Source of the DNA: Cyanophora paradoxa CCMP329
Taxonomy: Eukaryota; Plantae; Glaucophyta
Direction of reading: 5' to 3'
NCBI GenBank assembly: GCA_004431415.1
Contig: QPMI01000530.1
Coordinates: 124,001 to 188,000, forward strand
DNA: 64,000 bases
The notes beneath the pieces are model-generated. The model did not search any database. It was not told the origin of the DNA and worked only from the letters and a program-made list of their open reading frames with translations. The translations under genes were made by a program, and so were the position numbers. This document shows, in pieces, positions 14,254-52,743 of the stretch. Each line of letters starts with the position of its first letter. The stretch's first letter is position 1.

Positions 14254-14402
14254 ACACATAGGGATACCCCTGATCCAAGCCCTCCGGCCTTCGGCCTACA
14301 GGCTTGGATCAGGGGTATCCCTATGTGTGCGCGTTTCAGGTACTAGGGTAGTAAGCATTTATTTCAGGTCTTAGGGTATTAATCATGTCTTTTTGGCACC
14401 AG
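14254..14402 (+). repeat. Left TIR of outer element with terminal 28-bp hairpin (14254-14281 pairs with 14301-14328)
   Basis: acacatagggatacccctgatccaagcc...ggcttggatcaggggtatccctatgtgt; aligns to the reverse complement of 52597-52743. Confidence 0.95.
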
Positions 14403-14450
14403 TATGTTGGCCGCCTCTGGGGTATTGAACACATGAGTTTGGCATCAGCA

Positions 14451-14650
14451 GGGTGAATGGGGTGAACGGGTTGTTTGTATATTTTCTTAGGAAAAATGCC
14501 TTCTCACGGGAATTTATACAAACAACCCGTTCACCCCGTTCACCCCGTTCACCCCGTTCACCCAGTTCACCCCGTTCACCCTTACACCCTTTACACCCTT
14601 TACACCCTTTACACCCTTTACAATCTTAACAATCTTAACAATCCTTAACA
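14451..14650 (-). promoter_or_regulatory. Inverted 9-bp iteron/hairpin module, copy 1 (putative origin or 3'-end signal)
   Basis: ggggtgaac repeats and their complement gttcacccc flank an AT-rich core homologous to those at 22150 and 52507; followed by (ccctttaca)n. Confidence 0.6.
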
Positions 14651-14665
14651 ACCTTTACAGATGTC

Positions 14666-16035
14666 TCATCCTGCCCTCCTCCTTGATCTCGTGGAAATTG
14701 CTGGAGCTTCATAGGTCTCCTTTGAATTCGAGAAATCTCTATACCACCTTACTGCCTCTGCTCCCCCTGCTAATCTCTCTGTCCCTGCCACCCTCAATCT
14801 TTCCAACTCTCTCCCTTGTTTCTTCTTCTTCCCTGCTCTGTCCTCCAATAAAGGTTTATCCGGCACATTTGGAGCCCTCTCAATCCCCTCTCTGGCCAAC
14901 AGTCGCTCTGTTCTGGCCTCTTTCTTTGCCTCTTCAATGACATTTATTGATGGGGCTTCCAGAAACTCCACGGCTTCCACTTTCTGTAATTCGTAGTGGG
15001 CATAAAGTCGATCAATCATTTTTCCGGCAATGTCCCTCAATCTAAACTTGAACCCCTCCACTCCTTCTATTGTAAATATTTCGCGGCTCCAATTATTGCC
15101 CTGCTTGGCGAATGGACCCTTCTCTATTTTAGTTCTCACGTGGGTTCCCGCTGGATAGTCCTTTAGATATTCAATTGACTTCATGAATTTCTCGTTTTCT
15201 TTTGCGAGTATGAGGGGAACATGTACCTCTGTGGTCTCTGCTGGTTTCATCCCTGTTGCTGAGTGGATGGTATTATTGTAGTTGTAGGCAAAATCTTGGA
15301 GCTTGTCGAAAAACTTTACAGTATTATTCGCTATACAATACGAGTTAATTAGCTTCTTTATTGTGCGATTAAAGGCCTCTATTCGGCCTTGGCTATTGTG
15401 ATCTCCAACCTGCGAAACTTGGTGCTCAATCATCTGGGTTTCTAAATGGTCTTTAAATACCTTGTTCAGGAATTCGCTCCCAGCATCACTTTGTATCTTC
15501 ACAATTGGACGAGGGACTTGTTGCTCAAGCTCCTTAAACGCGTTCAATGTGCTTTCTGCTGTCTTTCCCCTCATTGGAATAATAAAGCCCAGTCTGGTGG
15601 TGTTTTCTACAGCTGTGAGGAACGTGTTGTAGCCTTGATTCTGTTTGCTGTATGAGGGAAAGAAGACTAAATCAATAGCGAATGTATCGAGTGGCTGTCT
15701 TATGGGGATATAGGCAGTCTTCTTGGCTGATGGGAGGGGTTTATTTATTTGGTTGATTTCTTGGGCATCATAGAATCTACGGATTGTCTTTCTTGGCACA
15801 TCTGGAAGCTCTTTGGCCAATGAAGCAAGGCCTTTAAATCCTACCTTGGTGTCATAGAATGTCCTTGCTAAGGATCCAAGTGGGGCACAGCAATTGCTGT
15901 TGGGATGTCTGCTGGAACTAATGCTTTGAGGTCACTCTTTTTCTGTATGCGCCCCCCTCTCTCTTCTTGAGGGATTGGGATAGGGAGTACACTCACATCA
16001 TATTCTGTTTGTCTGCGTACGATCTTTGATGACAT
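14666..16035 (-). CDS. Retroviral-type (rve/DDE) integrase of outer element; N-terminus frameshifted
   Basis: FAIDLVFF...IQSDAGSEF...GRIEAFNRT (DDE), YNNTIHSATGMKP, and Polinton-type C-terminus VRTKIEKGPFAK..NWSREIF...ELQKV. In-frame upstream FYDTKVGFKG; probable ATG at 16035 requires a frameshift near 15880-15960. Confidence 0.92.
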
Positions 16036-16046
16036 CTATATTGAGA

Positions 16047-19000
16047 TTAGAAAGCAATCTTTGACATCTTCACATTGAAGGTCTCATTTTCAAGCTTCTT
16101 TTGGACAGTCATTTCGATTTGCTTGGGTTTTTGGTGGAGCACATGGTCTTTATAATCTTGGAAAGACAGATCTGTTTGAATGGTCTCCTTACAAACACCA
16201 GCCAGCTTTTTGATTTCCTCATCATCTGTTTTAATGCTGTAGCATTTCGGCCTCACACCAGCATATTCTGTAATGGTTCTGCCCTCAAACTCATTTTTGA
16301 ACTTCCCAAGCTCTGTGGGTGTGTGTCAATGTCTTGTAGATCCTGTTGGATGGTTGTGGAATTTATTGAAAGGCAGAAAGAATCCGTATCAGTAAATAGT
16401 AGCTTACAGTCTGGCCACTTGCGCTTGATGGTGCTATAATAATAATCAAATAGGCGTAGCTTGGCAAGATCTAAAACAACTGCCCCAATTGCTATGGGCT
16501 TGTCCAGCTTGACGTCTTTCTGTAGCATTTCGAAGGCTACTGCTGAATCACTAAGCCTGGTTTCGGCTTTGAGAAGTGGGGATCTGGCATATTTCATAAA
16601 TTGCTTTTCGTTGGTGGCAATCTTGACATTCGACCTTCCCCTCACTTTCTCAATGGTTTTGCCGAATAGGCTGTTGTTCATGATCTTAAAGAAGTCCTTT
16701 TCGGGTTTGGAGGCGGCTTCTCTGCGGTTTTGGGCATTGGATTCGACGTAGGGCTTCATAAAGGCAGCCTGAGTAAATGTTAGCACCCTGTGGATTTTAG
16801 TGAGCTTCAGGCCTTGAGCTACCATAAACTGGAGCAATGGCTTGGATACTACGTAGTTGGATATGTCTTGGCAGGCTGCTTGTAGCCCATCTCCAGTTCT
16901 CTTGATGACAAGGGGCAGCTCTTTGTGGAGTTCATGGAGGTGCTGGGGATAATGGATGTCAACTTCTAAGATGGCCCCCTCTGCTGATGACAGGTCGTAA
17001 TTTGAGGGTTCTGGGTGCCATTGGAAATTCGAGAGGGGTAGCTTTTGGGACAGGGCATATCCATATAGGTTATTGGCGTCCAAATAGATAATGTGGCTGT
17101 CATTTTCAGCTCTGGCGTATTTATGGTTCATAATCGAAAGGCCTCCCCTAATCATGCCTTCAATCATGTTGTACATATCAAGGTTGGAAAGAAGCTCGAT
17201 TTTAGGCTTGGTGATCGATAGCATGCTGTCCCATGAAAGCCCAGGACTTGAGACATAGTGGGCAGCATCCATTCCAAAGGTCTTGTGGGATTTCTGGCGA
17301 AATAGCTGGAACTTTTCCATTAATCCTTCCACGTTCTGGACACCATAATCAATAAAGTTTTTGATGTCAATGAACTTAAAGCACCCCCATGTGATCGACA
17401 TGTAGTTGTCAAATGATTTCGCAAGAACATCCACCCTTTTTTCGGGATTTAAGGCAACTGCTTTGAATATCTGCGTTCCAGATAGGGACAGATCATTGGT
17501 CACTATGGGAATCTTGGTGAGATTGCTGGTGCGTCTGTGAAGATTACATTTGCGACAAGCAGTTCCCACAAAATCACCTGTTTGATGGTCGTGATCCCTC
17601 ACTTTATAATTGTCTTGGGTAAATTCGCCTTGGCAGATGTAGCAGGTTTTAGCAAGGTAATGGGTACGTTTCTGCTCTTTGGTCAGTGACATTGGGACGT
17701 TGGTAAATAGGGCTTTAAATAGCTCTGGGGCTGCTTTGTCGAGTGTAGATAAAAGCTCGTAGATGCTGGAGTGGGTTTTAGTGAGTACTATTCTATTATT
17801 ATGAAGAGCTGTCAGTGAGATTGATTTGATCTTGAACATACCAGAAATATCTGTTTCATAATCGAAATAGCAATAGGCAATCACGGGGAGGAATACAGTC
17901 TTTGAGAGATGTTTAAGACCAAATTCAATGAATGTGGGTTGTTTTGGGGTCTCTCCAGCACTTGTCTTCCAATCCACACAACGTTTGCTTTGAATGTGGG
18001 ATTGAAGCTTCTCCTCAGTCTTGAAGTGGTTGGAACAGGTTTTACAGAAATGGAGTCGCTGCTTATCATTTTTAGCTAAGACTCTGGACATGCTGAATAT
18101 TGTGGTATAGTGACTGTTACCATTTTCGTCTGTAATTAGCAGCAGATCCACTTGGTGTTTCCTGTTCCTTGAGGAGCTGTTGTGGAGTAGATTAATTTCT
18201 TCTGTAGAGTTAGAGGGGTCGTAAATATTAACAGAGATTGCTGGATTGAGATTTTCAAAGAGATCAATAGTATCAGCATCTGCCTTTACAGGAAACTCAA
18301 TGCCCTCGAAATTTAGTTCTTTTTTGAACCACCTCCTGTATTGGGAAGTCTCATTACGCTTGTGGCTATTTACTTCGTCCTTGTGAATATAAGAAAGGAT
18401 AGCATACTCAAAGCATCTATTGTCCTTGTTGTTGACATTGACAATGGCTCGTTTATTTTTGAGCCACTCTGGGAGTGGGATAAAAGCACCTCCTGAGATT
18501 GGCTTAAAGGAGAGAACAATGACCCTGAGGGCTTGGATGCTATCTAATCTGTAGCTATCTGTGACATTAATTTGCGACTGGCATTCCTTGGCAAGTTTAG
18601 CTGTCTCTTTTGTGAGGATTCGAGATCTTGTCATGATAGCATAGGTGCTGTAAATGTGCTTGGTAATAAAATCTCTCGAATTATTGGCCTTAGAAAAGCG
18701 ACAGACAAATGTAAAGCGAGTTTTAATCGACATTTGTGAATTGATGGCATCTTGGAGCCTTGTGTGGAGTTCCTCAGAGTAGGTGTCTATAAACTCTTGA
18801 GTGGTCAGGATCTGGTGCTGAGCTCTGATTGTGAAATCGATGTATTTATTGTTCAGAGCGCGATGTTCATTAATTAGAGCTGTGTAGTCTTCACCTCTAA
18901 CCTGTGTGGTCGTGGTCTGTTCGACTTGAATGTGGCCAAGGCGATCAGTCTCATCAAGGGCGTCGATTTTCCCTAATAGCTCTCGATTGAGAGCTTGAAG

Positions 19001-19141
19001 CCCCTTGAGCTTTTTGTTGGTTTGCCCTATGTATGATTCATATTCACTTTCACTGATCGAGTGGTTGGCCAGTAGGAACGCCAGATTCCCAAGAATCTTG
19101 TCCTGAAGCTCCTTAATTTGGTAGTGGCTGGGGCGGGGCAT
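16047..19141 (-). CDS. polB: Protein-primed family B DNA polymerase (Polinton type); frameshift near 16290
   Basis: YLDANNLYGYALSQKLP, KIMNNSLFGKT, LFTDTDSF, then RPKCYS...KKLAGV in ORF 16047-16256. N-terminal NNKDNRCFEYA, C2H2 finger and endonuclease-VII-like CYIC..VRDHDH.TG...AC..CN. Confidence 0.93.
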
Positions 19142-19581: not shown

Positions 19582-22056
19582 ATGACATCCACTGGCACCT
19601 TCCTAACAAGCATTATTAGCAGCCGTGAGGCCAGCACTGTGACCATGAGAGTCACTGAGGCACTCAAATTGATTGCCTCAGGCAACAGGCACATGGCTGA
19701 GTACTTGAGTGGCCATAAATTCACCAAGCTCTACATTGATTTCGAACAGGTCCTGCCTGTTGATGAGGTTGATGATGAGGGACTTGAGCTTATCAACTCC
19801 AAGGCTGAAAAGCTGGCCAAGGCACTTGGTGTCCACATCAGCACCATTGCCATCTCCACCAGATCAAGATTGCTGATCAAAAAAGACACACAGGATCCAT
19901 GCTACAAAGTGAGTGCCCACATGGTATGTACCACCCTTCATGGCATCTACAGGGACTTCCCTGCTATCCTCCAGAAGGTTGGATTAAAGGCAGATGTTGA
20001 CTATGATCCATCTGTTTACAACAACAATAGGGCGCTTGTGTGCCTTGGTTGCTGTAAAGAGAAGGCTCTTGCTGACAAGAGCAGCACCTATGAGGAACCT
20101 TGCTGGGACACTGTGTTCACCAAGCTAACATCCCATGAGGACACTGATTTCTTTGTCCAGCTTCTCACTGGCAAGGAGGCCCTGCTCACTCTTCCAGAGA
20201 AGGAGGAGCCTGCCCAGCAGCTGCCCAAAAATAATGATTATTCCAGCGAAATCATCACCACTGAAGAGCTGGAAAAGCTTGTGATGGGGCTTAGTGAAAA
20301 CCGAGCTGATGGCTATGCTGACTGGGTTAATGTTGGTTTGGCCCTGACAAGCACTATGAAAGACAAGAAAATGCCTGAAGACAAACTACTGGCAATCTGG
20401 CACAAATTCAGCCAAAAAAGTAGCAAATATAGTGCTGAGGCATGTGACAAGGCTTGGCAGAGCTTCCAGAAGGGCAGCTCATCCAAGCCTCTGACATATG
20501 CTTCTCTGGTCTTCTGGCTCAAAGCTGATAATCTGGATCTATTTATTCAGCTGTTTGCCAACAAGGGAGACCTCAAGCAGGCCATTAAAAATGCCATTGC
20601 TTCTAATGGAGGTCATTACAATGTGGCTGAAGTTTTGTATCATACACAGAATGACCAATTTCGCTATGATGCCAAGCAGAAGGATGTTTGGTATGTGAGA
20701 GATAAGGTAACTGGGCTCTGGAGGGCTGAAAGGGAGCCGCATACATTGCGTAAAGTGCTTTCTACTGATGTCATGAAGGTCTTCATGAAAGAAGCCATGG
20801 AGAACTCTCGAGCAGCTGTTGCTAATCCAGAGGACAGCACAAAGTATGAGGAGAATGCCAAGAAATGCCTTGAGATTGCCAGACAGCTCCTTAAATGTGG
20901 TTTTAAAGATTCAATTATTAAAGAGGCGAAAGCTCTCTTTGCTGACACTGAAATAGCTGACAAAATGGATGAGTGTAAGGAGCTGATTGGGTTCAGCAAT
21001 GGAGTTTATGACCTCCAAAACAAAGTATTTCGCACTGCCAAAACTACTGAGTATGTCAGCAAGACAGTGGGCTATCCATATGCTCCTATGATTAATAGGG
21101 ATGTAATGGAAGAGGTGAAGAAGATTGTGTATGAGCCATTTGAAGATAAAGAGACCGGAAATTTTGTCCTTAGGACATTGGCATCAGCTTTGTCTGGAAA
21201 AGGAAACAAAGACCAGCGCTTCCACATATGGACAGGCACAGGTTCCAATGGTAAATCCACTGTTCAGGAGCTGGCACTAAGGGCACTTGGTGATTATGCC
21301 CAGCCCCTTGACAGCTCTTATTGGGTCAGTGGCAAACCCAGGTCTGGAGCCCCTGTTCCTGAGCTGGCTGATAAAAAGGGTGTGAGGGTCATCTTCTCCA
21401 ATGAGCCAGAGGCCACTGACAAGCTTCAAGTGGGCAAAATCAAAGAGATCACTGGAGGTGAGAAAATAGCAGCTCGTTTACTACATGCTAACCTTATCAC
21501 ATTTACACCCCAATTCATTCCTTTCCTGCTTACAAATGACATTCCTAAGCTATCTAAGGTTGATGGTGGAATTCAAAGGAGGGCACATGTCACACCCTTC
21601 CAATTTCAATTCAAGGAAAACCCAATTCAAGGCCAGAAGAAGGCAGACCCTGGATTGATGGGCAGGATTAGGGATGATGAGAGATATCATCAGGCTTTCA
21701 TTTGGCTTCTTATTGACATATACACTACAGAGGTTGGTTCTATGGGTTTCATCCCAGTGCCTGAATCTGTGAGGGAGGCCAGCAAGGAATATATTACTGA
21801 GAATAACCCAGTGCTGACATGGCTCCAGGCAAACTTTGAAATCACCCTCAGCAGCAGTGACGTCATCAAAGCAGCTGATCTATTCAAAGAGTATTCCAGA
21901 GTGGATAAAGAAATGAGCCAAACAGCCTTTGGAACATCTATGACTGTGATCAATGGGATTCCTAAGAAGGTTGTAAGGCTGGGAAAGAGTACACCTATGT
22001 GCTACATTGGATTGAAGAGCAAGATTGCTATTGAGAGTGATAGTGACATGGAATAA
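19582..22056 (+). CDS. AEP primase / PriCT-2 / D5-like SF3 helicase
   Basis: LYIDFE, SAHMV, DPSVYNNNR (AEP-like); RADGYADWVNVGLAL..WHKFSQKSSKY (PriCT-2); IGFSNGVYDL (D5_N); Walker A GTGSNGKST; IKEITGGEKIAAR; intact 824 aa. Confidence 0.93.
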   Translation: MTSTGTFLTSIISSREASTVTMRVTEALKLIASGNRHMAEYLSGHKFTKLYIDFEQVLPVDEVDDEGLELINSKAEKLAKALGVHISTIAISTRSRLLIKKDTQDPCYKVSAHMVCTTLHGIYRDFPAILQKVGLKADVDYDPSVYNNNRALVCLGCCKEKALADKSSTYEEPCWDTVFTKLTSHEDTDFFVQLLTGKEALLTLPEKEEPAQQLPKNNDYSSEIITTEELEKLVMGLSENRADGYADWVNVGLALTSTMKDKKMPEDKLLAIWHKFSQKSSKYSAEACDKAWQSFQKGSSSKPLTYASLVFWLKADNLDLFIQLFANKGDLKQAIKNAIASNGGHYNVAEVLYHTQNDQFRYDAKQKDVWYVRDKVTGLWRAEREPHTLRKVLSTDVMKVFMKEAMENSRAAVANPEDSTKYEENAKKCLEIARQLLKCGFKDSIIKEAKALFADTEIADKMDECKELIGFSNGVYDLQNKVFRTAKTTEYVSKTVGYPYAPMINRDVMEEVKKIVYEPFEDKETGNFVLRTLASALSGKGNKDQRFHIWTGTGSNGKSTVQELALRALGDYAQPLDSSYWVSGKPRSGAPVPELADKKGVRVIFSNEPEATDKLQVGKIKEITGGEKIAARLLHANLITFTPQFIPFLLTNDIPKLSKVDGGIQRRAHVTPFQFQFKENPIQGQKKADPGLMGRIRDDERYHQAFIWLLIDIYTTEVGSMGFIPVPESVREASKEYITENNPVLTWLQANFEITLSSSDVIKAADLFKEYSRVDKEMSQTAFGTSMTVINGIPKKVVRLGKSTPMCYIGLKSKIAIESDSDME

Positions 22057-22595: not shown

Positions 22596-22766
22596 AAATT
22601 GTAAGTACCCCATCTTAAAATCACCGATTCATCCCGCGTGCCTATCACCGTTGGATTCCTCGTAAAAAGTAGATATTTATAGACCCCAACATCATAGCCT
22701 TACGATGATCTGGTGACGAGCTACGAATATTTTCAGGTTCGCATATACCATATATATGCCATTATG

Positions 22767-23415
22767 ATATATGTATATGATATATCATAATGTCACATGA
22801 CATATATATATAACATAGCTTTCCGGACTCGCCGCGTCATGGCGATCACGGCGCTGTAGTTAGTGCGAAAACGTGTTTTTTTTTATATATATCATATACA
22901 TATGTACGTTCGCGCGTACTGAGCCACGGTACGCACAGGGGCCTGCGTACTGCGCTACGGTACGCACAGGGGCCTGCGTACTGCGCTACGGTACGCACAG
23001 TGGCCTGCGTACTGCGCTACGGTACGCACAGTGGCCTGCGTACTGCGCTACGGTACGCACAGTGGCCTGCGTACTGCGCTACGGTACGCACAGTGGCTTG
23101 CGTACTGGGCTACGGTACGCACAGTGGCCTGCGTACCAGCTAAAGTACGCACATTAAATCTTATAAGACCATATAAGATTTTGAAAAAGAATTCTTATAA
23201 AGACCATATAAGATATAAGACAACTCTTATAAGACCTTATATGACTTAAATTTGAGCGACTTGTATATACCATAGTTATATATGTATATGATATATCATA
23301 ATGTCACATGACATATATATATAACATAGCTTTCCGGACTCGCCGCGTCATGGCGATCACGGCGCTGTAGTTTTTACCAAAACTTGGTTTTTTTCATATA
23401 TATCATATACATATA
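22767..23415. repeat. ~95-bp direct repeats (22767-22861, 23278-23372) bracketing a 31-bp x~7 palindromic tandem array (22916-23152)
   Basis: Unit ggtacgcacagtggcctgcgtactgcgctac at 31-nt period, with internal inverted repeat gtacgca/tgcgtac. Confidence 0.9.
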
Positions 23416-23621
23416 TATGAGCCAGCCTACCGCAGTGGTAGGCGAGCCCGTGTGTCTACCGCAGACCGGTAGGCACAGTCCGCCGGCGGTAGAACAGTAG
23501 GGCCCTGCCTACTCGCCTACCGGTAGAGCCCTCGCGCCTACCGTACAGCAGTAGGCGGCTTTTTCCTTATAGAGCTCTATAAGAATGTTTCTAAAACTTT
23601 CAATTAGAGCCACTTAAGGAA

Positions 23622-23705
23622 CTTCAAACGCGAATATCTCGGCACCAGATTGGCCGTTTTGAGCGCTCTTTTTTTTCCTGTGAAGCTCTCATCAAGCTCT
23701 ACGCA
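23622..23705 (+). promoter_or_regulatory. Conserved 84-nt non-coding box shared with the inner element (33913-33996)
   Basis: Gapless alignment cttcaaacgc...tatctc..caccagatt.....tgtgaagc.ct..tcaagctctacgca. Confidence 0.7.
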
Positions 23706-23750
23706 GAAATGCCCCTTTCGCATTTTTATGCTGCCTAAAAGTAGATTATT

Positions 23751-25431: not shown

Positions 25432-26213
25432 TTATAGACCGCGTTTATATCGCATTAACTTATTACTATGAACTTGGCTTTTCACTTCTTTGCGCCCCTC
25501 TTCTTTCTCTGGTGGTTTAAGCTCATCTTCTTTCTTCTTTGGCTTCCTGTGGAACCGTGGAAATGGGAAATCTTTGACCAAATCCGCTTTATCTACGAAA
25601 TATTTCACAGAATAATCGGCGGATGACCAAATTAGAAACTGATAGGAATGAACGTACTCTTCAAACATTTTATAGAAAACATCTTTGTCCGCATTATATT
25701 ATATTCTTCCTCAATGGCTTCAAGCTCCTTTCTATTGGCAGCGCTTAGGAACATAGCATAATCTGAGTTGACGCGAATGGTCGATGAGACTTTCCTTAGC
25801 TTTTGTGTGATACAGATAATAGATATTTTCAAATGTCTGCCCATAGAGTACAATTTGTTGATTATTTTATCGCGAGTGAGATCGACCAAGTCATTATCAA
25901 TTAGATCGTCCAGTACAACTAAGAGTTGATTAATCGGCTCTCCTTTTTCTATTTTCTGTTGTCGATCTTCCAGAACCTTTTCAATGTAAGGAGCATCCCA
26001 TTTGCCAAGCTGAACACTTGCTACATTGTTCCAAAAGTTGTTAAAAGCCGTTCCACTGATTACAAGGACGACATCAATCTTTTTGGCATCATGAAGCTGC
26101 TTGAGCCAGTACTTTACAGCCTCTGATTTACCAGTAGCAGATTTGCCAATTGCCAAAACGCGGAAAGGGGGGTTTATCATCTCACCAGCATTAAATTCGT
26201 CCAAGTCGCCCAT
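25432..26213 (-). CDS. A32/FtsK-HerA genome packaging ATPase (outer); frameshift near 25690
   Basis: PFRVLAIGKSATGKS, LLVVLDD, GRHLKISIICITQ, IRVNSDY; C-terminus in ORF 25432-25668. Confidence 0.92.
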
Positions 26214-36127: not shown

Positions 36128-36179
36128 CTCTTATGTTTAAAATACCAAAAGAAATTTTTAAAATGCTTTATTAAACAGA

Positions 36180-37079: not shown

Positions 37080-37115
37080 GAAATACTGTAGAATAATTTT
37101 GTCTCGATATTACAA

Positions 37116-37877: not shown

Positions 37878-38226
37878 GGATCATTTCCGAATTTAAAAAA
37901 TCTTGAACATTGTTAGCGCTACGTAACCAATCCTATCCCGTAGGCTCAAAACTTCTTCATTTTTATGGAGGCGTTGTAGAGCGAAGTGAAATATCCATAG
38001 GTAAATCACTTTAATCACCTGTTCTACCGGGTTCAGTGGTAGAAACTTGCAGCCGACAAGTGAACCTTCTGGGTATCGGTAGCTTTATCATTTTTCCAGC
38101 ATCTTCTTTCGTACTGGATGCTCTGCAATCGGGACCAAAATTTGACAGGAGTTTATTCGCTATATACAGACAGAAAAACTACTTAAAGATTTCTTAACAT
38201 ATATTAAGAGAGTAGAAAAGGACAAC

Positions 38227-38484
38227 ATGCCAATTAGTGAGGCTCAGAAGCGTGCTACTTATCGTTATCGTAAAACTGAAAAAGGTCAGGAATATTTGAA
38301 AAAGTACAATGCCAGATTCGCAAAGCAAATGCGTGACTTATACCATACTGATGAGTGTTACAGAGCCATGAAGATCGTTGAGAGTTCCCAGCGTCTCTAT
38401 GCCTCCAATGCAGTCTGCTTTGTGAAGTATCTTTATGGTGTCCCGTATTCTAACCGTGGTCGCAAATCGAAATATGTCTGTTAA
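38227..38484 (+). CDS. Small basic protein (putative DNA-binding)
   Basis: SEAQKRATYRYRK...CFVKYLYG...RGRKSKY; positional and sequence counterpart of 19285-19476. Confidence 0.65.
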   Translation: MPISEAQKRATYRYRKTEKGQEYLKKYNARFAKQMRDLYHTDECYRAMKIVESSQRLYASNAVCFVKYLYGVPYSNRGRKSKYVC

Positions 38485-38652
38485 TCGTTTTTCTCAGCGC
38501 GATCTGCTCTGAGAAACCCGTGGGAACCGCGCTGGAACCACAAATAAAATCATTCTGTTATTTTTAGAGTTCGATGATCGAGCCAACCCTTTGTTATTTT
38601 TATAAATGCCCTCGACTAAATTTATTTTGTCGGAGACTTTTGGTTTTGCCGG

Positions 38653-38662
38653 AAAAAATTGA
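38653..38662 (+). promoter_or_regulatory. AAAAAATTGA early-promoter-like motif upstream of the inner replication gene
   Basis: Intergenic, ~64 nt before ATG 38726. Confidence 0.5.
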
Positions 38663-38725
38663 CGCGAGTATAAAAGTATTTAAGGAAAACTTTTGTAGGT
38701 ATATATTAATAGAGTGAACGAAGAA

Positions 38726-41700
38726 ATGCCTCGCCCTGGAAACAGAATTGCAAATAAGATAAGAGAAGAGATCATTGGTTACATTACCCAGGGTAGTGTC
38801 CATGGAATTCTGAGCGAGGAGCAAGTGAATTACTTTTTGGAAAGGACGATCAACCGCAGGCTCCGCTTGCAATCATTGATTGATATTCGCGATACTCTCA
38901 ATGGTATCATCAATCCTCGTGTGGTCCGCAAGCAAGAGAAGAAGGAGAAGAGGGCTGAGAGAGCCGCTAAGAATGTTGAGAAGCAAAACAAGAAAGCAGA
39001 GCAAGCGAGGGAGCGGAAGCGATTGACTCCTTTCCAGCAGATGATGGCTAACCTTCGTGAGTTTGTTGAAAACTCACCTGGAAACATGGTCACCCTGAAT
39101 GTGAGACTCTTCCGTGAGTTGCAAGAGGGCGAACAGGCTCCCGCAAATGCGAACAGAGTGACTGAGAATGGTGTGACCTACATCGAATCGAAGAGGCTTC
39201 GGAACAATCGCCCCTTTGGTATCCAGTGTACCAAGGCAGCTTTTCTGAATGCTCTCGGTCTGGTTCAATCCACCTTCAATACGTTCCCATGTGTTGAGGG
39301 GACTGTCATTGCTGAATTTATTGCAGCAGTTATTGAGTTTAACTCGAACAATCAAGATTTCCGCTACCTAAAACTAATTGAGCAAGATACCTACCCTGAT
39401 ATTATGACAATTGAAAGAGTCATCACGACAGATAATGAAGAATACATCCCAAGAAATGAACAAGTCCTCAGAGACAATACAAACGCTCCCATGATTATTT
39501 CGAATTTCATTAAAAACGAAGGGAACCCCCAAGCCACTACATTCAGGGAAATGTTCTTGAAAGGCAACTCATTCAAGGTTGGCAAGTGTGTTTTCGATGT
39601 CCTCATCAAATGGTTTGGAGGAGCATTTGAGAAGGCTAAGACCAAAGGGAAATACAAGCGCATCGATTGGTCTTACAATGGACTTTTTAAGATGGTAAAT
39701 GGGCGCGACCCTGTTGAAGGAGATGATTGGGGCATTTCTTTCAAGTCCATTTCGGAGAAGGTTCTTGACCCACTGCGCCTAGGCATGGTTACAATTGGAA
39801 AGGACGACAGGACCCCTGTCCCTGAACTGACTTTCCTGCCAAGACCAGGAACACACACTTGACCCCTTCTGTTGCATATGTGAAGATTGAGAATGGTCAC
39901 ATGTATTTGTTAAATCACAATATTAAGGCTCTCACACAGTCCTTCAATGGCTCCAAGCCAAAAGATACCAATGTTCCACTCAGTTCTCGTTACAAGATTA
40001 TAAAGCAAAGAAGGTTCAAGGAGTTTGCCACAAATCCCGATGACATTCTGAGAATTGTCAGGTCTGACAATCCAAAGAACCAATCGAGCATTCGAATCTG
40101 CTATGGTGGTTCACTGGATGAACTACTCAGAGAGTTCATTGTGGTGCATAATTATCAGGTCCAACCTGGGTTCTCCCAAATCGGAAAGGCAACCCATATT
40201 CGTTTCACTATTGACGATAAGGATGTTGTCGTGACCCACCTGGTAACGATACAGATGTGGAAACAGCTTTCGAGATTAGCTTCAAGAATGCTGAGTACAG
40301 AGATAAATTCGAGAAACTAAATCTGGATATGTATAGGTCTCTAATCAACACTTCCAACAAGAGTACTTACAATGAGCAAACCATAAATGCATTCAAGAAT
40401 GGAGTGCAGACTGCCCTTCGTGGTCTCTTTGATGTGGATGAGGAGACCTTTGATGAAATTCGCTATAACACAGATATTTACGAGTTCGATATGTGCAAAG
40501 CATACCTTACATTGTAGCCTTGATGATCAAATTCGTTCCTGTTCTCAGCAAGTTCGATGTCTTCAAGAGTGTGACAATCACAGATGCAGAGCAAATCGAG
40601 GAATACAGCTTCTATTACGTGAAACTGGACGACAAATACTTTTTCAAAGCCAAAGACAAGAACGGAAAGGAGTACGAAGCAAACACCTACAACAGATACA
40701 AGAGGATGATCATTGATTCCAAGTACAATGTTGTTCCTGGTTTGGTTCTCAAAAAGCATTTCGAGGATTTCAAGGATGACATCTCCATCAAAGCGGTTCT
40801 GCGACCTTACAAACTCATTCCCAACCTTGCAGGCAACACAGTTGCTCGAATCTTAGATAGCGACCTCGATCCTGTTGATAAGAAGCAGATCTTGGTGAGT
40901 GCAATTGGGCAAACTGGAAAGCAACGAAATAGCAGAGTGAAAACCACCATTTTCCACAACAGAGACGATGCGATCGAGTTCCAGAAACAGAACGGAGGGG
41001 AGGTTAAAATTTACCTCTTTGGTGAGACTCTTGCCACTTATGAGGAGACAGAGTTCGTTCTGTGTGAGGAAGAGATGACCGAACCCCATATCTACTATGT
41101 CAATCAGGTAGCAGAAAAGCAGCTCATTGATGGCTTCATGCCATTGTACACTACCCTCTTGTCAATTATGAGGATGTGTATGTATGAGAAGTGTGTCGAA
41201 CTCGCTAAACAGCAAATCCGACCACTCGCTTTGAACACCGATTGTGTTTATGGGATCGCTTATGAACCCATTGCCCAGTGTCATTCGATCGCAATGCCTT
41301 TGAGAATATTGGAAACTTCAGTGTGAAATGCTGCCCCAATTTTTCTAAAAAGTTTTCAGGTGAGAAGAAAGACCTCGAGGCAAAACGAATTCGTTACGGA
41401 AAGTTTGAGAGAGCGACTGACTTTGTGAAAATCGAGAACTACAGTTATACCAAACACTCTGTGGTTGATGAGTATGACACAACCGCGATTTGTGATTTGC
41501 TGGCTACACAAAAACGATGGGTTCTTCTCGGAGTAGTTCCGGGAGTTGGAAAGACTTACATGACAGTTGATTATGGGAAGCGTTTCCAAAATCCCCTCTA
41601 CATTGTTCCCACCAATAAGCGAGTGAAAGAAATGAAAGAGCAAGGATTGAAAAATGTAAAGACAATCTATGATGCCCTTCACCTTAAAATTGATGAGTCA

Positions 41701-42810
41701 AACATGGATGAAATTGTAGGAGGAAATGCCTCTGGTTTGGTAGAATTTGATTGCATTGTTATTGATGAGATCTGTCAGTTTAAGATTGGGGAACTGGCAG
41801 CCTTGGACCACATCATGAATGAGCAGTTCCCAGATAAGGTATACATCGCCACAGGGGACCCGTACCAAAACCCACCCATCCAAGATATGAGTGTTGACCA
41901 AGATGAGTATTACCTCGATATTCTCCATCGCCTGTTCCCCAACGAATTGTTACTCCAAGTGAACAAGCGACATGAGACTGAGGAAGATCGCAGAAAGGTT
42001 GAGCAGATTCGAATCGATTTGTTCGAGAAAGGTTTGAGTGTAAGTGAGGTCCTTGCGAAGTATGGGTTCAAGGTTGTGGACGAATTGGAAAAGACTGATA
42101 TTGGCATTGTTTACACAAACCGCAAGGGTGCAGAGGTGAACCTAGCCCTTCACAAAATGAACTACGGGGATAATGTTTCCATTTATGCTGGCGGCATCAA
42201 AGTTGTTGCAAAGACTCGGATTGCAAAGGGCGGAAAAATAGTTCATAATGGATTTGTCTACAAGATTGTCAAGCTCTCAAAGGACAGTTTCATTATTGCT
42301 GACATTGCCAACAAGAAAGATGAGATCGTTCTCAGCAGGGATGCAGTCAAACATTTCGCCCTGGCTTATGCAAACACATGCCATGTTGTTCAAGGTGATA
42401 CTATTCGCTGCAAAGGGAACAGGGTAGTTGTGTTCGAAACTGGGGCGCCATTTGTGTCAAAGAAGTGGCTCTATGTTGCTCTCACACGAACCACAAGGCT
42501 GGATGATGTCGTTATTTACCATGATAATTTCGAAATGGCTCACTGGAAGGTGTGGAAGAGAGAGAATAACGAGAAAATATCGACTTACAAGGATCAGGAC
42601 CGAGCAGCAAACAGACAATTCGATGAGCATGATTACATCACATGGGATTGGATCAAGCAGCGATATGGGAAGCAGTATGGGCATTGCCTGCGATGCTACA
42701 ATGCCATGGACTTTGAAGATATTTCGGTAGATCGAATTAATAATGCTGTGGCTCACGTTACCAAAAATTGTTTCCTCTCTCATATTAAGTGTAACTGCGC
42801 CGCCCAATAA
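38726..42810 (+). CDS. Divergent PolB-like domain + SF1 (RecD/Pif1-like) helicase + C-terminal HNH-like nuclease fusion; ~4 frameshifts
   Basis: Abutting ORFs 38714-39862, 39859-40320, 40257-40517, 40493-41326, 41278-42810. Pol-like EFDMCKAY, KQILVSAIGQTGK, ALNTDCVY; helicase GVVPGVGKT, IVIDE, GDPYQNPP, YANTCHVVQGDT, YVALTR; nuclease CLRC...SVDRINN..AH..KNC....CN. Confidence 0.8.
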
Positions 42811-43870
42811 TGGATAGTGTATTATCATTCAAAAAGTATAGGCAGAAACTGATTAATGAAAAAGTGAGTTTTGATGAAAAAGAGTTGAAAAAGAAATTCA
42901 AAAACTCAGAACTCCAGCAAATCTACAAGAAACCAAGGAAACCCAAATCGTTTCTTCGCATAGTGGCAAAGCCTAGATCGTTTCAAATCGATATAACATA
43001 TTTCAGAGGGTTTCAGACTGCCAACAATGGCATTTTCAAAATGCTTAGTTTCGTAGACATACTTAGTCGCAAAGGATTTGTTTATCCTTTTAAAAACAGC
43101 AGTGAGATCCCGAGCATTTTAAATAGGTTCAAGCAAGAAGCAGGCAAAGTTAATGCTCTCTCTGGGGATAATGAGTTCTCCCAAGCAGTATACCGAAATT
43201 GGTGCAGTGAACATGGTGTGATGCTTTACACAGATGTGGCAAAGGATGACCACATCACAGTAGGAGATAAACTGGGATTATTGATAGGTTCACTAGGACT
43301 TTCAAACAGTATCTCAGAAAAACGATGACAGCAAAGGGAACCACGAAATGGATCGATCTACTTAGTGATGTTATTGACTTGTATAATAGCAGTCCCCATT
43401 CGGCATTGAAAAATGACTCACCGAATGCAGTGTATACAAATGAAGATAAACAGTTATTTATTTACATGAGAGATACTGTTCACAACAATCGTGTAAAGGA
43501 GGCTGATACTAATCAAGTGAAACCAGGAGACACAGTTCGAGTTTTGCAACCAAAGGGGTTATTTGAAAAAGAAGGTGCGCAATTCAGTCAGAAGGTCTAC
43601 ACTGTTGCAAAGGCTGATAGGAATCGTTTCAAAGTGCTTGAAGATAATGATGGTGAGGAAACGAAAGAAGTGAAGAGGAGATTTAAGAAGCAAGAATTGC
43701 AAAAGGTGAATAAAGATGATATCATAAAGATCCCATCGCAAAAAAGAATTCAGCAGGTTAATAAGACGAATAAAGTGAATCGATTGGTAGCAAAGGAAGG
43801 CATAAAACCCAATCGAAGTAATGTTGTAAGGAGAAGATACAATCTGAGAAGTGGTTTAACGAAACGCTAA
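42810..43870 (+). CDS. rve integrase of inner element; frameshift near 43280
   Basis: FQIDITYF, FVDILSRKGFVYP, LSGDNEF, (shifted) IIDRFTRT, YNSSPHSAL, GDTVRV...FEKEG..FSQKVYTV...QELQKV. Confidence 0.9.
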
Positions 43871-44270
43871 ATCATGGGAGACACGGCGGATAAAAAGGAA
43901 ATAACTTCGATTAAATATAATTAATCGAGATTATGATATAACTTCGATAAATAAGATTTAAGATATAACTTCGATTAATTCGATTTTTGTTACTGAGGCT
44001 TACTGAGATTTAGTGAGATTTGGAATTGGGTTACTGTGAATGGTTTGTTTTTCTTGGGAATTGTTTTGGAGACATGGCGCATAAAAAAGATATAACTTCG
44101 ATAAGATATAATTAATCGAGATTATGATATAACTTCGATTAATTCAATTTTTGTTACTGAGGCTTACTGAGATTTACTGATATTCAAGATTGGGTTACTG
44201 GGAATGGTTTGTTTTCTGATTTGTTTTTGATTTTTTCGCGGGTATTTTTTTGGAGACACGGCGCAGTGCT
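43869..44270 (-). repeat. Right TIR of inner element containing two tandem ~200-bp units
   Basis: ggagaca(c/t)ggcg at ~43878, ~44067 and ~44252; ATAACTTCGA x5. Confidence 0.9.
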
Positions 44271-44276
44271 GAGCTC

Positions 44277-46597
44277 AGGGCAAACAGAACACGGGTTTAA
44301 GAATTTATAATGAGGGCAGCACCACAAAAACAGAGGTTCCCCAAGTATTACAAGTGGGCCATTTCCAGAACACGAATCAAGTCTGTTCAACTAATGATGT
44401 ATACCCCAAGGATATTACATATGACTTTGCGAGGAATGAACCGTTTGGGTTTTTTACTCCAAATGATGTCCACCAGAAAAAGCCATCAATTACCATCAAC
44501 AGCAGCCCCACTCAACCAGTAGCAATCCATTTACACCCTGATCTTGTCGAAATGGATAGGCACCTTTTACCTTTGGTCACAAACACCAAAGACCTTGGAA
44601 TCAGGACGAGGCAGTGGCGAAATATCCATGGAAGCAATGTGTATGCCAATGGTGAAAAGCTTGTCAGTGAGAAAACTATAAGGGAAATCTTTGAGCATTA
44701 CGGTCCTGTTCCTGTCCCCTTTCCGCTTCCGTGGGATCCACCTGACCTGACACCAAAGAAGCAACCTGGGAGGGAATACACAGCAGAGGAAAATGTAGCC
44801 TTTGGGCAGCACATAGTTAGCTGGGAAAAAGTCAGAAACAAACCAGTATTTACAGATTACAAACAACCAGCTGAGGAGCTTTTATCACCAGATGTAAATG
44901 TTATACCTCTTGAAGATAGGCGATTTGAAGAGGATAATGTCTTACCAGATGGTTTCGACCCAAATCTTGTAACTTATGATCGCTACGAGCCTTACGACGA
45001 GCAGCTGTTACCTGATGGATTCGCTCCCGATCTATTTGATTTTATCATTAATTGGGAAGACATCCGAAATAAACCTGAAACATATCCTCCTGATCCCCAT
45101 ACTCACGATTGGGATGAAATAGATAATAAACCGGATAGATTTCCACCAGAAGACCATAGACATGATTGGGACGAAATCGATAATAAACCAGAAAGATTTC
45201 CACCAGAAGACCATAGACATGATTGGGATGACATTGACGGAATACCAGAACAGTTCCCACCAGAAGACCATAGGCATAATTGGGACGAAATAGATGAACA
45301 ACCCACATTCGCATCAGCAGGCAATATGTTGACAGACTTTCCACTTGGTGTAAGTCTTTATAGAAATATTAACATAGAAGAAAGATTACAATTAAATGAC
45401 CACTACCTTAATCGCATGGGAATAGAAGCAGGCACAGGAATGGAAGCCGAATTATACATTAGACCACCCAGAAGAGATGGTATTTTACCAATTAGTGGTA
45501 ATTTTGGTCTGTATGAGACGAAACCCGGAATTTATTTAACAAGCTTCTACCCTGAGGATATCCCGATGACGAATATATTACCTCCGATACCGTCACTTCC
45601 ATTAGATCCAAATAGTTATGATAACAAAGACGCAGCAATACAAATTAATGTTACAGATGTAAGCGATTTTGACCAATCGAGACCGAAATTAGTATTTAGT
45701 CGGCAGCGTCTTTTACCAAATACTTTTATAGGAGATCGTGATGATTATAGACGATGTGAGATAGCATGGATAAAAACGAAATATAACGGTGGGGTCGGTG
45801 AAGGTTTATTAGAAATCAATCAAAGAGCAAGCGCCAAAAATATACACAATGAAGATATTTCGAGAGTGGTAACAGAAGATTACCTAACGGCTGTTATTCT
45901 CGTTAATTTCGTAACTCTTGCGATGCTTGGAAATTATGTAACAAAACCTGAGCTTGCCGCGGAATTATCAAAATATCTTCCGCTTGTTGGTGGGACAATC
46001 ACAGGAGACCTTACGGTAAATAGTAATATTTACAGTAGCAATATAGAGACGAGTAATTTAAAAGTGAATGGAATTCTAACAATTGGCTCAGCTAATGTAA
46101 ACACATTGCAAGAATTTAACAAAGATTACTACCGCATCACAGCAAGCAATGACCCCGCTTCTAATATTCCAAATTGTCTTTTTGCATGGAAAGCATCAGG
46201 TGTTCACGGTGAATCCGCGTTCAATTCTAATCTTTTCAATAGAGTCCCAAATGCTTTGATTCCATCAATAAAAGTGGCTTTTGGAAACAGTTCTTATTTT
46301 ACATCAAATACAGAAATCAATAACCAATTCACTATAACAACTCCTTCCGTAGACAGTATGGCTGCATTTTCCTATCCGCATGCAACAATAGATTGGTCAT
46401 CAGGATTAACATACTTTGCGATAGGTAAATACAACCAGTCACCCAGTGTTGTTGATCATCTACGAATAATGAGGACAGAATCACCAAACAGAACTGTTCA
46501 ATATGGTATCAAGTCAAATACAATACTTGGAATGACAAGTTTTGTAATATCGGGAGCGCTACAAGCGACCCTTCTATCACTGTTCCTTCTATGCTAA
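44277..46597 (+). CDS. Fibre/receptor-binding protein, middle part (H.HDWDEIDNKP..FPPE repeats, LamG-like domain)
   Basis: ORF 44354-46597 extended upstream in frame; phage-tail-type repeats; YLPLVGGTITGDL motif. Confidence 0.75.
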
Positions 46598-50305: not shown

Positions 50306-51150
50306 ATGGGTGAATACAATCGAGTCCAATTACCAGTTTACGCATTGGGGGCGCCCGCGGTTCACTTTCGACAACACGAAGTGTCTGATGAAATTCGTGG
50401 ACTTGAATCCACAGAACGAGCCAATTCTGGTAATGCTTTTGATAAAAACAGCATGATTCGTGTAAAAGAACTACGCGCGGATAAAAATTCGGGTGTGGTA
50501 AAAACAACTCAGCTCCTTGTAACGAATGCGAACTTCAATGCTGTTATAGGGCAGCCGGATTCCTATAGTGTGGACCTTAGAGGGTTTGATTTTGATGGTG
50601 AACGCGCTGCTGCTGTTGTGAGATCAGGAGGAGCAATTATTGGTGGCGGTTGTCGAGTATCAGGAATGCTTAGTTCATCTGTTTCAGTCAATGACATTCC
50701 TGACACTTTACCAGAAAATGAGGATAATCCACAACGAATTCGAATGTATAATCCATGTGGTGCTGAAGCTTGGGCAATGGCGCAGGTTCGTGTTGAGCTA
50801 ACAAATGTCACAGCAACTCAGCCAAATGGAATAGCTGGTGATTGGTATTATCCAAATATTCCAATCCCAGATCCCTTCACGCAATGTGTAGATCACAAAA
50901 TGGTCTGTTAGGTCCAGCCTATACTTTCTATGTTCAGAGTATGGGTCGTGGGAGGGGTTGGGTTCTATTCCAAAATCTTGCTCAACCGGAATCTTTTGAT
51001 TTTTACGCAACAGAAACTGGAAACTACGATGTTCTTATAATTGGATTGAGAACAGACCAAGCAGCATGGGCATCTTCGCGTGGTCTAAATCCAGATAATA
51101 ACTTAAACAACTTCTACGACGATCCATTCCCGAATGATCCCACACCATAA
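50306..51150 (+). CDS. Hypothetical structural protein, tandem paralogue A; frameshift near 50905
   Basis: ORFs 50306-50911 + 50842-51150; shares GLESTE...ELR.DKN.GVVKTT.LLVTNANFNA...RSGGA with the next gene. Confidence 0.65.
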
Positions 51151-51169
51151 ATATGTTTTGATACATTAA

Positions 51170-52012
51170 ATGGCAGCTCCTGCTCCACCTGAACGCATTT
51201 TAACAGCCCAACTATCATTAGCTGCTCCAGCCAATCACGTTTTACAACATGCTATTATTGATAATGTTGATGGCCTTGAATCCACAGAGATAGCACCAAC
51301 TCTTAATACTTTTGGCGACACTCACATGCTAAGACTAAGAGAATTGAGATGTGACAAAAATAATGGGGTCGTTAAAACTACAAAACTTCTTGTAACAAAT
51401 GCGAATTTCAATGCGTTTCATGGAGATCCTGATAGTTACAATGATGACAACAAGGTAACAAACTTTGCCTATGAGGCAAGAAGGGGAGCAATTAAATGTA
51501 GATCAGGAGGCGCCTATATTGGAGATGGTTTAAGGGTTGGTGGAATTATTGGAGCGCCCTGTTAGTAAATGATCAACCCAATCCTGATGATGTAAATACA
51601 AGAATCAGGACATATGTCCCAGGTATGAATGAGCCCTACATTATAAAAATCAATACGATTATTATAAACCTTCAAACAGCCGTTCTGGATGTATTAGAGC
51701 CTTTGGGAAATCATTATAGGTATATTGAGACATTGCCTGCTGATATTTACTCATTATGTAGACGAACTGATGGAGCAAGACCCGTATTACAGTCCAAGTA
51801 GTCCCAGTAGATAATTTCGGTCTTGCTTTTCATTCATTGCCCTGCTTGACACACAAGATGACCAATATATTATAAGAGCCACACAACAAGGGACTTACAC
51901 AGTAATTATGTATGCTGAAAGAAATGATGAAATCGCAAGAGGAAATCGATATGGACAGTATCTAACCACCAATTTATACAATCCCATTGGTGGAAGTGAT
52001 CCTTTGCCTTAA
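51170..52012 (+). CDS. Hypothetical structural protein, tandem paralogue B; frameshifted
   Basis: ORF 51170-51565 continues in other frames to GTYTVIMYAERND...GSDPLP* (stop 52010-52012), colinear with paralogue A. Confidence 0.6.
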
Positions 52013-52057
52013 ATCGTCAGATGTCTTATTGTTTTTTCTATTCTATTGGTAATCAAA

Positions 52058-52456
52058 ATGCTTGCCAAAGGTTACCATGTGATGCTTGATTTCCAATTCA
52101 GCCAACCAATTAGCGACCATGTGGAGCTCTCTAAATGGCTCATGAATGTCAGTGAAGACATCATCAAGAAATATGGAATACAGGTTGTCCACAAACATGC
52201 TGAGATTTTTGATGGCACCAAATCACCCCCTGGATTTGCCCAAGTATTATTATTAGATGAAAGCCATTGCTCTGCTCATTGCTACAGTGATCAAGGCATG
52301 TTAGCAATAGATATATTCAGCTGTGGAAAACAGGCAGAAAGGAATACAAGTTTAATTGCTTTTGAGCTGGAGGAGGAGATAAACAAGTATGCTATTGGTT
52401 TTGGGGCAGTGATCAAAAAGAGATTACACCATGAGAAGAGGAGGTTTGAGGTTTAA
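52058..52456 (+). CDS. speD: S-adenosylmethionine decarboxylase family proenzyme (short prokaryotic-type, pyruvoyl-dependent)
   Basis: GYHVMLDF...PPGFAQVLLLDESHCSAHCYSDQGMLAIDIFSCG with the ESH autocleavage site. Confidence 0.88.
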   Translation: MLAKGYHVMLDFQFSQPISDHVELSKWLMNVSEDIIKKYGIQVVHKHAEIFDGTKSPPGFAQVLLLDESHCSAHCYSDQGMLAIDIFSCGKQAERNTSLIAFELEEEINKYAIGFGAVIKKRLHHEKRRFEV

Positions 52457-52458
52457 GA

Positions 52459-52592
52459 GAGGGTGTTGAGAGTGTTGAGGGTGTTGAGAGTGTTGAGGGT
52501 GTTGAGGGTTATATGTAAAAATTCCCGCGAGAGAGAATTTTCATAAGAAAGTTTACAAACAACCCTCAACACCCTCAACACCCTCAACACCC
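52459..52592 (+). promoter_or_regulatory. Inverted iteron/hairpin module, copy 3
   Basis: (gtgttgagg/a)n-gggttatatgtaaaaattcccgcgagag...taagaaagtttacaaacaaccc-(accctcaac)n; near-identical to copy 2. Confidence 0.65.
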
Positions 52593-52596
52593 CTTG

Positions 52597-52743
52597 CTGG
52601 TGCCAAAAAGACATATTTATTACCCTAAGACCTAAAATAGATGCTTACTACCCTAGTGCCTAAAACGCGCACACATAGGGATATGCCAGATCCAAGCCAG
52701 AGGGCGAAGCCCGAGGGCTTGGATCTGGCATATCCCTATGTGT
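52597..52743 (-). repeat. Right TIR of outer element with terminal 28-bp hairpin (52671-52698 pairs with 52716-52743)
   Basis: acacatagggatatgccagatccaagcc-agagggcgaagcccgag-ggcttggatctggcatatccctatgtgt. Confidence 0.95.

Follow-up and report, generated by a model that had tools for sequence, protein, structure and literature searches.

Polinton-like viruses (PLVs) that carry a fusion of an inactive, protein-primed DNA polymerase of family B (pPolB), a superfamily 1 (SF1) helicase and an HNH domain have been described, and the same helicase fusion is found in the element Tlr1 and in transpovirons (PMC5499653). Tlr1 encodes a major capsid protein (MCP), a penton, an ATPase and an rve integrase and has no protease (PMC5499653). 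The integrated PLVs of Tetraselmis depend on a giant virus and combine a conserved structural module with divergent replication and integration genes, some of them with a fusion of S1H and an inactive pDNAP (Tetraselmis preprint). Nesting is known from Halocafeteria seosinensis, where five PLVs and nine virophages lie within other viral elements and replication modules have been exchanged (bioRxiv 10.64898/2026.07.28.741278). For glaucophyte algae 156 elements have been tabulated, with rve in 85, pPolB in 49, D5_N in 40, S1H in 34, lipase in 89, AdoMet_dc in 66 and a protease in 0 (PMC12220804 Table S6); an MCP was recognised in 2 of the 156 with the profiles of Bulzu et al. 2025, and a PTR-PTR-H_lectin fibre as well as discoidin-patatin fusions were noted, the fibre in Cyanophora paradoxa (PMC12220804). 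In this alga 366 capsid loci were counted, in clusters of 272 and 94, with an estimated share of 7.3% of 99.9 Mb (PMC10120064 Tables S2, S4). Here we analysed a stretch of 64,000 nucleotides of C. paradoxa CCMP329 (contig QPMI01000530.1, positions 124,001 to 188,000; hereafter the window, in whose own numbering all positions are given) in which a PLV-type element, the outer element, holds a second and smaller one, the inner element, inside its fibre-like gene.

The inner element interrupts the fibre open reading frame (ORF) in frame, with 117 whole codons on its left and 774 on its right up to the next frame break, and the insertion is therefore a clean break of a once-continuous gene. At the junctions the window reads CAGGG, then AGCTCAGCAC...GTGCTGAGCT, then CAGGG again, the element itself ending AGCT...AGCT. 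Contigs from four host DNA runs were aligned to 30501-50500, and all 30 bins of this stretch were covered in each of the four, every run contributing 1,589-3,180 contigs among which variants are numerous; contig depth was not taken as copy number since there is no single-copy baseline. In three of the four runs a joint leads from 32657 directly to 44276 and skips 11,618 bases, that is the 11,613 of the element plus five, and these five letters fit on either side. The empty-site contigs have depths of 608-1274. At the left junction, contigs from the fibre side leave into the empty-site letters in 3/3 runs, and, joints and loose ends taken together, each of the four runs examined contains empty fibre sites. 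A sequence-only reading of the window had placed an 11.6-kb element in the fibre gene of a 26.9-kb element and had called the fibre gene of this outer copy disrupted, and both statements are borne out by the in-frame split and the empty site. It had also described two complete elements, each bounded by terminal inverted repeats (TIRs) and a target-site duplication (TSD). The TIRs are there in both, and the empty site that it had proposed to look for does exist in the host runs, but it reads CAGGG, which proves the inner TSD, and not the predicted GAGCTC. The latter is ruled out as a duplication by the empty site and consists of the palindromic tip plus one flanking base, and the CGCGCG beside the outer ends may belong to the terminus. 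At its right end the inner element also repeats part of the TIR in tandem (43868-44052). Searches with the terminal motifs gave 0 matches in viral contigs and in metagenome contigs. For a small PLV family of glaucophytes the locus thus establishes both the ends and a target duplication of 5 bp.

Misassembled junctions had been named in advance as one outcome that would undo this picture. A long-read assembly could have joined two repeat families by mistake, as both are high-copy repeats, the window contains many one-base breaks (10 of 11 tested being losses of one base) and the matches listed (24 of 97) include no read contig that spans the nested junction. A join error, however, would not create a target duplication. 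Here CAGGG stands on both sides of the insert in the window and exactly once at the same place in independent contigs, and the insert spans from perfect terminal repeat to perfect terminal repeat, so that we consider a misassembly highly improbable.

Both elements are multi-copy families, as seen from the coverage and the contig variants in all four runs. In run X2 an outer-family contig was found at a depth of 7,934 against 2,015 for the inner family, values that do not stand for copy number. In run X6 the inner tip continues into other flanks in three contigs; the one clean flank among these was searched for in the window with up to three mismatches allowed and gave 0 matches. If the published cluster of 94 loci is taken to be of the inner type, which is an assumption of the model, 94 insertions into a target of 5.5-7.3% would give 5.2-6.9 nestings, with P(>=1) above 0.99. 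The fibre gene makes up 24% of the outer element and is its largest target, and one case in the fibre gene is therefore what chance predicts. The sequence-only reading had gone further and proposed that the minimal virus targets its larger relative. A site-specific hyperparasite that disarms its relative would fit an insertion in a coding region that truncates the gene after 117 codons, yet it is a single case, all four runs contain empty fibre sites and inner ends are also joined to other flanks, and with 5-7 nestings expected by chance we find such targeting very unlikely. Nor are rve integrases of this class known to be site-specific. This nesting disables the fibre gene of one outer copy only, and intact fibre genes exist in other copies. 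The explanation that we think probable is that there are two distantly related, many-copy PLV families and that one small copy came to lie in the fibre gene of one large copy by an untargeted or loosely AT-biased landing.

Table 1. Features of the inner and outer elements (positions within the window; strand where it applies).
Feature	Position	Strand	Basis and remarks
Outer Polinton-like element	14254..52743	.	GC step, TIRs, gene set; 26,872 bp without insert and one TSD; tips uncertain by a few bases
Left TIR, ~290 bp, opening with a 74-nt perfect-stem hairpin	14254..14528	.	CGCGCG alongside (TSD or terminus)
Outer rve integrase with D, D, E residues	14666..15931	-	Pfam rve E 9e-6; NCBIfam IS481-type E 6e-21; motifs by eye
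Outer pPolB with inserted endonuclease VII	15934..19141	-	motifs A/B/C intact; Endonuclease_7 E 6e-6; start approximate
Outer primase-superfamily 3 (SF3) helicase (PriCT_2, D5_N, primase_Cterm)	19582..22056	+	family matches
Outer non-coding region	22596..23750	.	167-bp direct repeat, 31-bp tandem array; blocks 23285-23307, 23315-23368, 23622-23651 and 23679-23705 match inner element
Outer A32-like packaging ATPase	25432..26213	-	Pox_A32 E 3e-13; one frame break
Outer homing-endonuclease-like gene	26274..27224	-	PHROG 559 E 1e-74
Outer MCP, two frames	27324..28693	-	identity of the pieces to P0002 (a named protein of Cyanophora paradoxa) 61% and 54%
Outer penton-like gene A	28747..29778	-	aligns with inner penton
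Outer penton-like gene B	29787..30722	+	24% identical to inner penton over 318 amino acids (aa), E 9e-11
Outer patatin-like lipase, then discoidin (F5/8 C) piece, several frames	30712..32263	-	Patatin E 3e-15; F5_F8_type_C E 1e-3, below cut-off
Fibre-like gene, 5' part, 117 codons, severed by inner element	32307..32657	+	frame, empty-site contigs
Inner TSD CAGGG, left copy	32658..32662	+	empty-site contigs
Inner element, 11,613 bp	32663..44275	.	AG...CT ends; TIR of 32 nt perfect and ~235 bp imperfect
Inner non-coding region	33140..33996	.	blocks 33140-33162, 33334-33385, 33913-33942 and 33970-33996 colinear with outer element; 12-bp tandem array
Inner A32-like ATPase	34061..34819	-	Pox_A32 E 1e-15
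Inner MCP, intact, predicted double jelly roll	34901..36127	-	model with predicted local distance difference test score (pLDDT) of 65.8 (six-sequence alignment)
Inner penton-like protein	36180..37079	+	low-confidence model (pLDDT 46.8); position and homology with outer pentons agree
Two inner genes (253-aa basic protein; 85 aa)	37116..38484	+	no family match
Inner fusion, one gene in five frames	38726..42810	+	N-terminal region, altered pPolB palm, SF1B helicase, C-terminal HNH-like motif; RecD2 E 1e-10
Inner rve integrase, two frames	42810..43870	+	Pfam rve E 0.007; 28-29% identical to outer integrase
Inner TSD CAGGG, right copy	44276..44280	+	empty-site contigs
Fibre-like gene, 3' part, ~2,000 codons	44276..50265	+	phage-tail repeats, Laminin_G_3, H_lectin; frame break near 46570; internal 1.9-kb duplication
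Two paralogous outer genes, each in more than one frame	50306..52012	+	51% identical over 121 aa; directly behind fibre gene
Outer S-adenosylmethionine decarboxylase (AdoMetDC)	52058..52456	+	AdoMet_dc E 1e-11
Right TIR with terminal hairpin	52505..52743	.	stem differs from left at 3 pairs, fully compensated

Integrase, ATPase, MCP and penton-like genes were found in both elements as the sequence-only reading had listed them, except that the outer element has two penton-like genes and not one (Table 1). The model of the inner MCP aligned with the capsid protein of Paramecium bursaria chlorella virus 1 (PBCV-1) over 340 residues (E 3e-17, Z 29.2, root-mean-square deviation 3.3), and its best matches were PBCV-1, faustovirus and other capsids of nucleocytoplasmic large DNA viruses (NCLDVs; Z 21-29), with Sputnik at Z 17.7 and mavirus at Z 16.4. 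At the sequence level, none of 4,318 candidates passed a word-index search with the inner MCP and a PDB sequence search gave 0 matches; a full HMMER scan returned 7 matches, 5 of them of MCP length. No relatives came out of viral-contig scans for which the queries were P0002, the inner ATPase, P0007 and an ATPase alignment. The penton model gave four matches at E<=0.001 (4e-5 to 8e-4), namely capsid chains of PBCV-1, Sputnik and adenovirus and the mavirus penton. No family match to a capsid-maturation or adenovirus-type cysteine protease was obtained in 34 ORFs and further pieces of both elements, among which several short ORFs are without a family.

The replication gene of the inner element is spread over five frames. 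Four of its five pieces align one after the other with a profile made from five natural homologues of 1,296-1,587 aa (E 6e-7, 6e-5, 7e-33 and 4e-92), the N-terminal piece being not significant (E 0.22). Dominant read contigs have one extra base at each of 39838, 40234 and 40504, and one contig of 2,352 letters spans 39185-41532 with four gaps. It is one gene, and it is not decayed in the family. Motif B of its palm lacks the Asn and the Tyr, motif C reads NTD with the first Asp altered, no exonuclease was recognised, and the palm motifs are changed in the same way in the natural homologues; from these motifs we infer that the inner pPolB would be catalytically inactive. The earlier statement that the inner element lacks a fibre, a lipase and a clearly intact polymerase thus stood in that family searches of its ORFs found neither fibre nor lipase and the palm motifs are altered, but in the family the gene itself is not in decay, its breaks being closed by read contigs. 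A likeness by eye of the first 51 residues of the fusion to the outer pPolB was not significant (pairwise E 0.03, -0.6 bits) and was dropped. At 41900-42759 contigs in three of the four runs omit 858 bases of the helicase gene, at about one eighth of the main depth, which suggests deleted, non-autonomous inner derivatives. The same PolB-like/SF1/HNH fusion also occurs in a viral contig (L001, 1-17505) that forms a complete-looking, AT-rich element of 17.5 kb with perfect TIRs of 127 nt. This element has a second large primase-helicase-like gene and no capsid gene evident by eye among its 13 ORFs, and is possibly a large transpoviron-like element.

Frame breaks are found across both elements, and 10 of the 11 tested are losses of one base. 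The break in the fibre gene is a CCC that reads CCCC in the gene's own internal duplicate. Together with the extra bases in the read contigs this makes it likely that the majority of the breaks are sequencing slips, decay of this copy being the alternative. The locus thereby suggests that, where genes look broken in assemblies of this kind, the cause is for the most part slips in sequencing.

The outer element, with the inner one inside it, stands out by its GC content of 39-43% from flanks of 58-62% GC made of intron-rich eukaryotic DNA, and no element-like DNA was found in the flanks within the window. Its terminal hairpins (14254-14327 and 52670-52743) differ between the left and right stems at three positions, and because all three differences are compensated the fold itself would appear to matter. 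The CGCGCG beside both ends is a palindrome, and on the left and right alike its CGCGC pairs with the inner hairpin side; this sequence may therefore be part of the terminus and not a target duplication. A scan of the ends over shifts from -10 to +59 fits only CGCGCG (6 bp, shift 0) or 4-bp CG repeats, and no other exact duplication of 5-8 bp. The integrase gene is probably broken at its 5' end by a frameshift. The C-terminal part of the outer pPolB runs on in another frame; no Pfam match to DNA_pol_B and 0 matches in a PDB sequence search were obtained for this protein, and exonuclease motifs II and III appear altered by eye (16253-19141). The tandem paralogues behind the fibre gene had no family matches. 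Within the fibre gene the two copies of the internal 1.9-kb duplication (46122-46847 and 48038-48764) are 94-97% identical, and read joints show fibre copies with differing repeat numbers, so that fibre length varies among members of the family. One hairpin, with 9-bp repeats around a conserved AT-rich core, occurs in three outer copies (14451-14545, 22130-22234 and 52479-52592), each just behind the 3' end of a gene (integrase, primase-helicase and AdoMetDC), which makes them candidate terminators. Rfam and tRNA searches gave no matches. In the flanking host DNA a gene with many short GT-AG introns lies at 8000-12900, whose exons by eye resemble two response-regulator receiver domains (hybrid histidine kinase); Pfam gave no match for two of these exons, both of which are too short. 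The GC-rich host DNA also holds near-perfect AT-rich tandem arrays at 9217-9771 and 7213-7441, with units of 35 bp and 38 bp.

The proteins of the two elements are homologous and far diverged, with 33.5% identity for the ATPase, 27-28% for the MCP, 24% for the penton and 28-29% for the integrase, and both elements share the divergent layout of ATPase-MCP and penton. The replication modules are different, pPolB with PriCT_2/D5 in the outer element and the PolB-like/SF1/HNH fusion in the inner one. The sequence-only reading had described syntenic but diverged capsid modules, unlike replication modules, shared cis-elements and two related proviruses of PLV type without a protease, and our data agree with it on each of these, on the last in so far as no protease family was matched. 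Comparison by blastn gave no TIR-to-TIR match between the elements, and with integrases of so low an identity this argues that each family is mobile on its own. The outer-type hairpin tips and the three-copy hairpin are not present in the inner element. What the two do share is a set of four non-coding blocks of 23-54 bp, 72-91% identical and colinear in 33140-33996 of the inner and 23285-23705 of the outer element. In a blastn comparison of the whole elements 8 matches had E<=0.1, as opposed to at most 2 in 30 dinucleotide shuffles, and these matches include block repeats and ATAT-rich stretches; block 3 scored 39, the highest value among 300 shuffles being 30, in a region picked after the match was seen. 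As the proteins are so far diverged, the blocks would reflect either strong constraint or later exchange.

The common blocks and the missing entry genes allow, without showing it, a satellite relation, in which the fibre-less and polymerase-dead small virus would need the pPolB, fibre or lipase of the large family in trans and would mimic its cis signals, the nesting being a by-product of their co-activity. Such a dependence would fit the alterations in motif B and in the first Asp of motif C, the lack of fibre and lipase and the colinear blocks above shuffle level; the homologous pentons could perhaps accept a common fibre, and the outer family looks more abundant by the depths in run X2, with the same limit on copy number. 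The same fusion, however, is carried by PLVs, Tlr1 and transpovirons without a PLV helper in the parts of PMC5499653 drawn on here, and also by the unrelated 17.5-kb viral contig. The inner element moreover keeps a full capsid and integrase module, its ends differ and are without the outer hairpin tips, so that the outer replication ends are not mimicked, and a dependent virus would be harmed by destroying the fibre of its helper. We therefore judge a satellite pair unlikely, and literature searches, with most subscription papers and bioRxiv supplements not covered, found no published relation of a PLV satellite to a PLV helper. If it were true it would be the first dependence of a PLV on a PLV, in a capsid lineage that has few relatives beyond the glaucophytes, and would add a new layer to the hierarchy of virus, virophage and transpoviron. 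It would also offer, in an alga that can be cultured and that holds hundreds of copies of both partners, a testable account of how DNA is replicated by PLVs whose polymerase is inactive.

Our preferred explanation of two independent families would work as follows. Hundreds of copies share one algal nucleus, and each family would move by means of its own integrase. The inner integrase would have made a 5-bp staggered cut in an outer fibre gene, in an untargeted or loosely AT-biased landing that disabled that outer copy alone. For replication the outer family would start from its hairpin-tipped ends with pPolB and primase-helicase, and for entry into cells it would use fibre and lipase. The inner family would unwind its DNA with the SF1 helicase and take a polymerase from the host or from a giant virus acting as helper, which is the proposal made for PLVs with inactive pPolB fusions. 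The common non-coding blocks are likely to be regulatory or packaging signals that these sister families have either conserved or exchanged. Four observations weigh against this explanation. A chance landing leaves the non-coding blocks unexplained, the sole feature of which this can be said; the inner element has no fibre or lipase, so that entry may come from elsewhere; the clean flank in run X6 was compared with this window only and could belong to another outer subfamily; and the absence of a bridging contig among the matches listed, given above, has to be counted here as well. It is also possible, though we put this forward tentatively, that both families are virophage-like and stay silent until a giant virus infects the alga, the common blocks being read by that helper; such a life style is compatible with two independent families. 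It would suit the three outer hairpins just behind gene 3' ends, which may resemble the terminator hairpins of giant viruses, and the giant-virus-dependent PLVs of Tetraselmis have a similar modular make-up (Tetraselmis preprint). On the other side, no helper virus is in evidence at the locus, the inner element lacks the three-copy 3'-end hairpins, and inspection by eye of 24 gene starts gave no clear common upstream motif beyond AT richness.

How the pair relates to known systems depends on more than the capsid. Most PLV and Polinton capsids structurally resemble NCLDV capsids (PMC10120064), and capsid fold alone therefore does not place the elements. As expected of PLVs, both have an A32-like ATPase and a double-jelly-roll MCP, the latter by model in the inner and by sequence homology in the outer element. 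The outer element resembles Polintons/Mavericks (Polintoviricetes) in its pPolB, rve, ATPase and capsid genes and its TIRs, and differs from them by the lack of a detected cysteine protease and by its primase-helicase, lipase and AdoMetDC. The motifs of a protein-primed PolB are intact in the outer element and not in the inner one, where the pPolB is not active-looking; rve, TIR and a duplication of 5-6 bp are present together in the inner element, and integrase and TIR in the outer. Transpovirons have no capsid genes, whereas the inner element has an MCP, a penton-like protein and an ATPase. Against an assignment to the virophages (Virophaviricetes), Sputnik and mavirus rank far below NCLDV capsids and no protease was found. 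The NCLDV-like PLV groups Zephyr, Zora and VC40 are alike in that the capsid fold is nearest to NCLDV capsids; Zephyr members have pPolB, primase-SF3 or polB-SF1 fusions and lipase domains, and Zora often rve (bioRxiv 10.64898/2026.06.19.733378). Unlike these groups, neither element had a recognised VLTF, HUH or Mriya48 gene, the HMMs of the groups not having been applied. The main text of this 2026 framework makes no mention of glaucophytes (bioRxiv 10.64898/2026.06.19.733378).

The nested elements of Halocafeteria share with our pair the virus-in-virus arrangement, PLVs without a detected protease, rve, related capsids, pPolB together with D5, and terminal palindromes beside TSDs. They differ in host and capsid lineage, and the sections of that preprint drawn on here report no common non-coding blocks for nested partners; the palindromes there are tied to elements without pPolB, whereas here it is the pPolB-bearing outer element that has them (bioRxiv 10.64898/2026.07.28.741278). 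The inner element resembles the Tlr1/PLV helicase group (PMC5499653), as it combines MCP, a penton-like protein, ATPase and rve, no protease found, with a protein of 1,360 codons that has an altered palm, SF1B and an HNH-like motif. This is the arrangement of an inactive pPolB palm, SF1B and a C-terminal nuclease in 1,000-1,400 aa that marks the group, the inactivity being read from motifs. In Tlr1, however, the C-terminus is GIY-YIG and the host a ciliate, as opposed to HNH-like and an alga here, and the HNH form is described for PLVs, which mostly have a tyrosine recombinase (PMC5499653). With 11.6 kb and no fibre the inner element also falls below the quoted PLV size of 14-40 kb. The gene combination, which the sequence-only reading did not recognise, is thus not new, as the fusion is published (PMC5499653) and the inner and outer gene sets both occur among glaucophyte elements (PMC12220804 Table S6). 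Compared by eye, one listed C. paradoxa capsid and the inner MCP show 6 differences in their first 188 residues (PMC10120064 Table S2), and a second listed capsid, in its shown part identical to P0002, is 54-61% identical to the outer MCP (PMC10120064). The parts of the two C. paradoxa catalogues used here give counts and capsid lists, without the anatomy, ends, nesting or non-coding blocks of these families (PMC10120064, PMC12220804), and the locus links these counts to two real genome plans. Taken as a whole, the pair works in the manner of a PLV with pPolB that has an element of PLV/Tlr1 type nested inside it, and we file it under neither Polintoviricetes nor virophages nor transpovirons.

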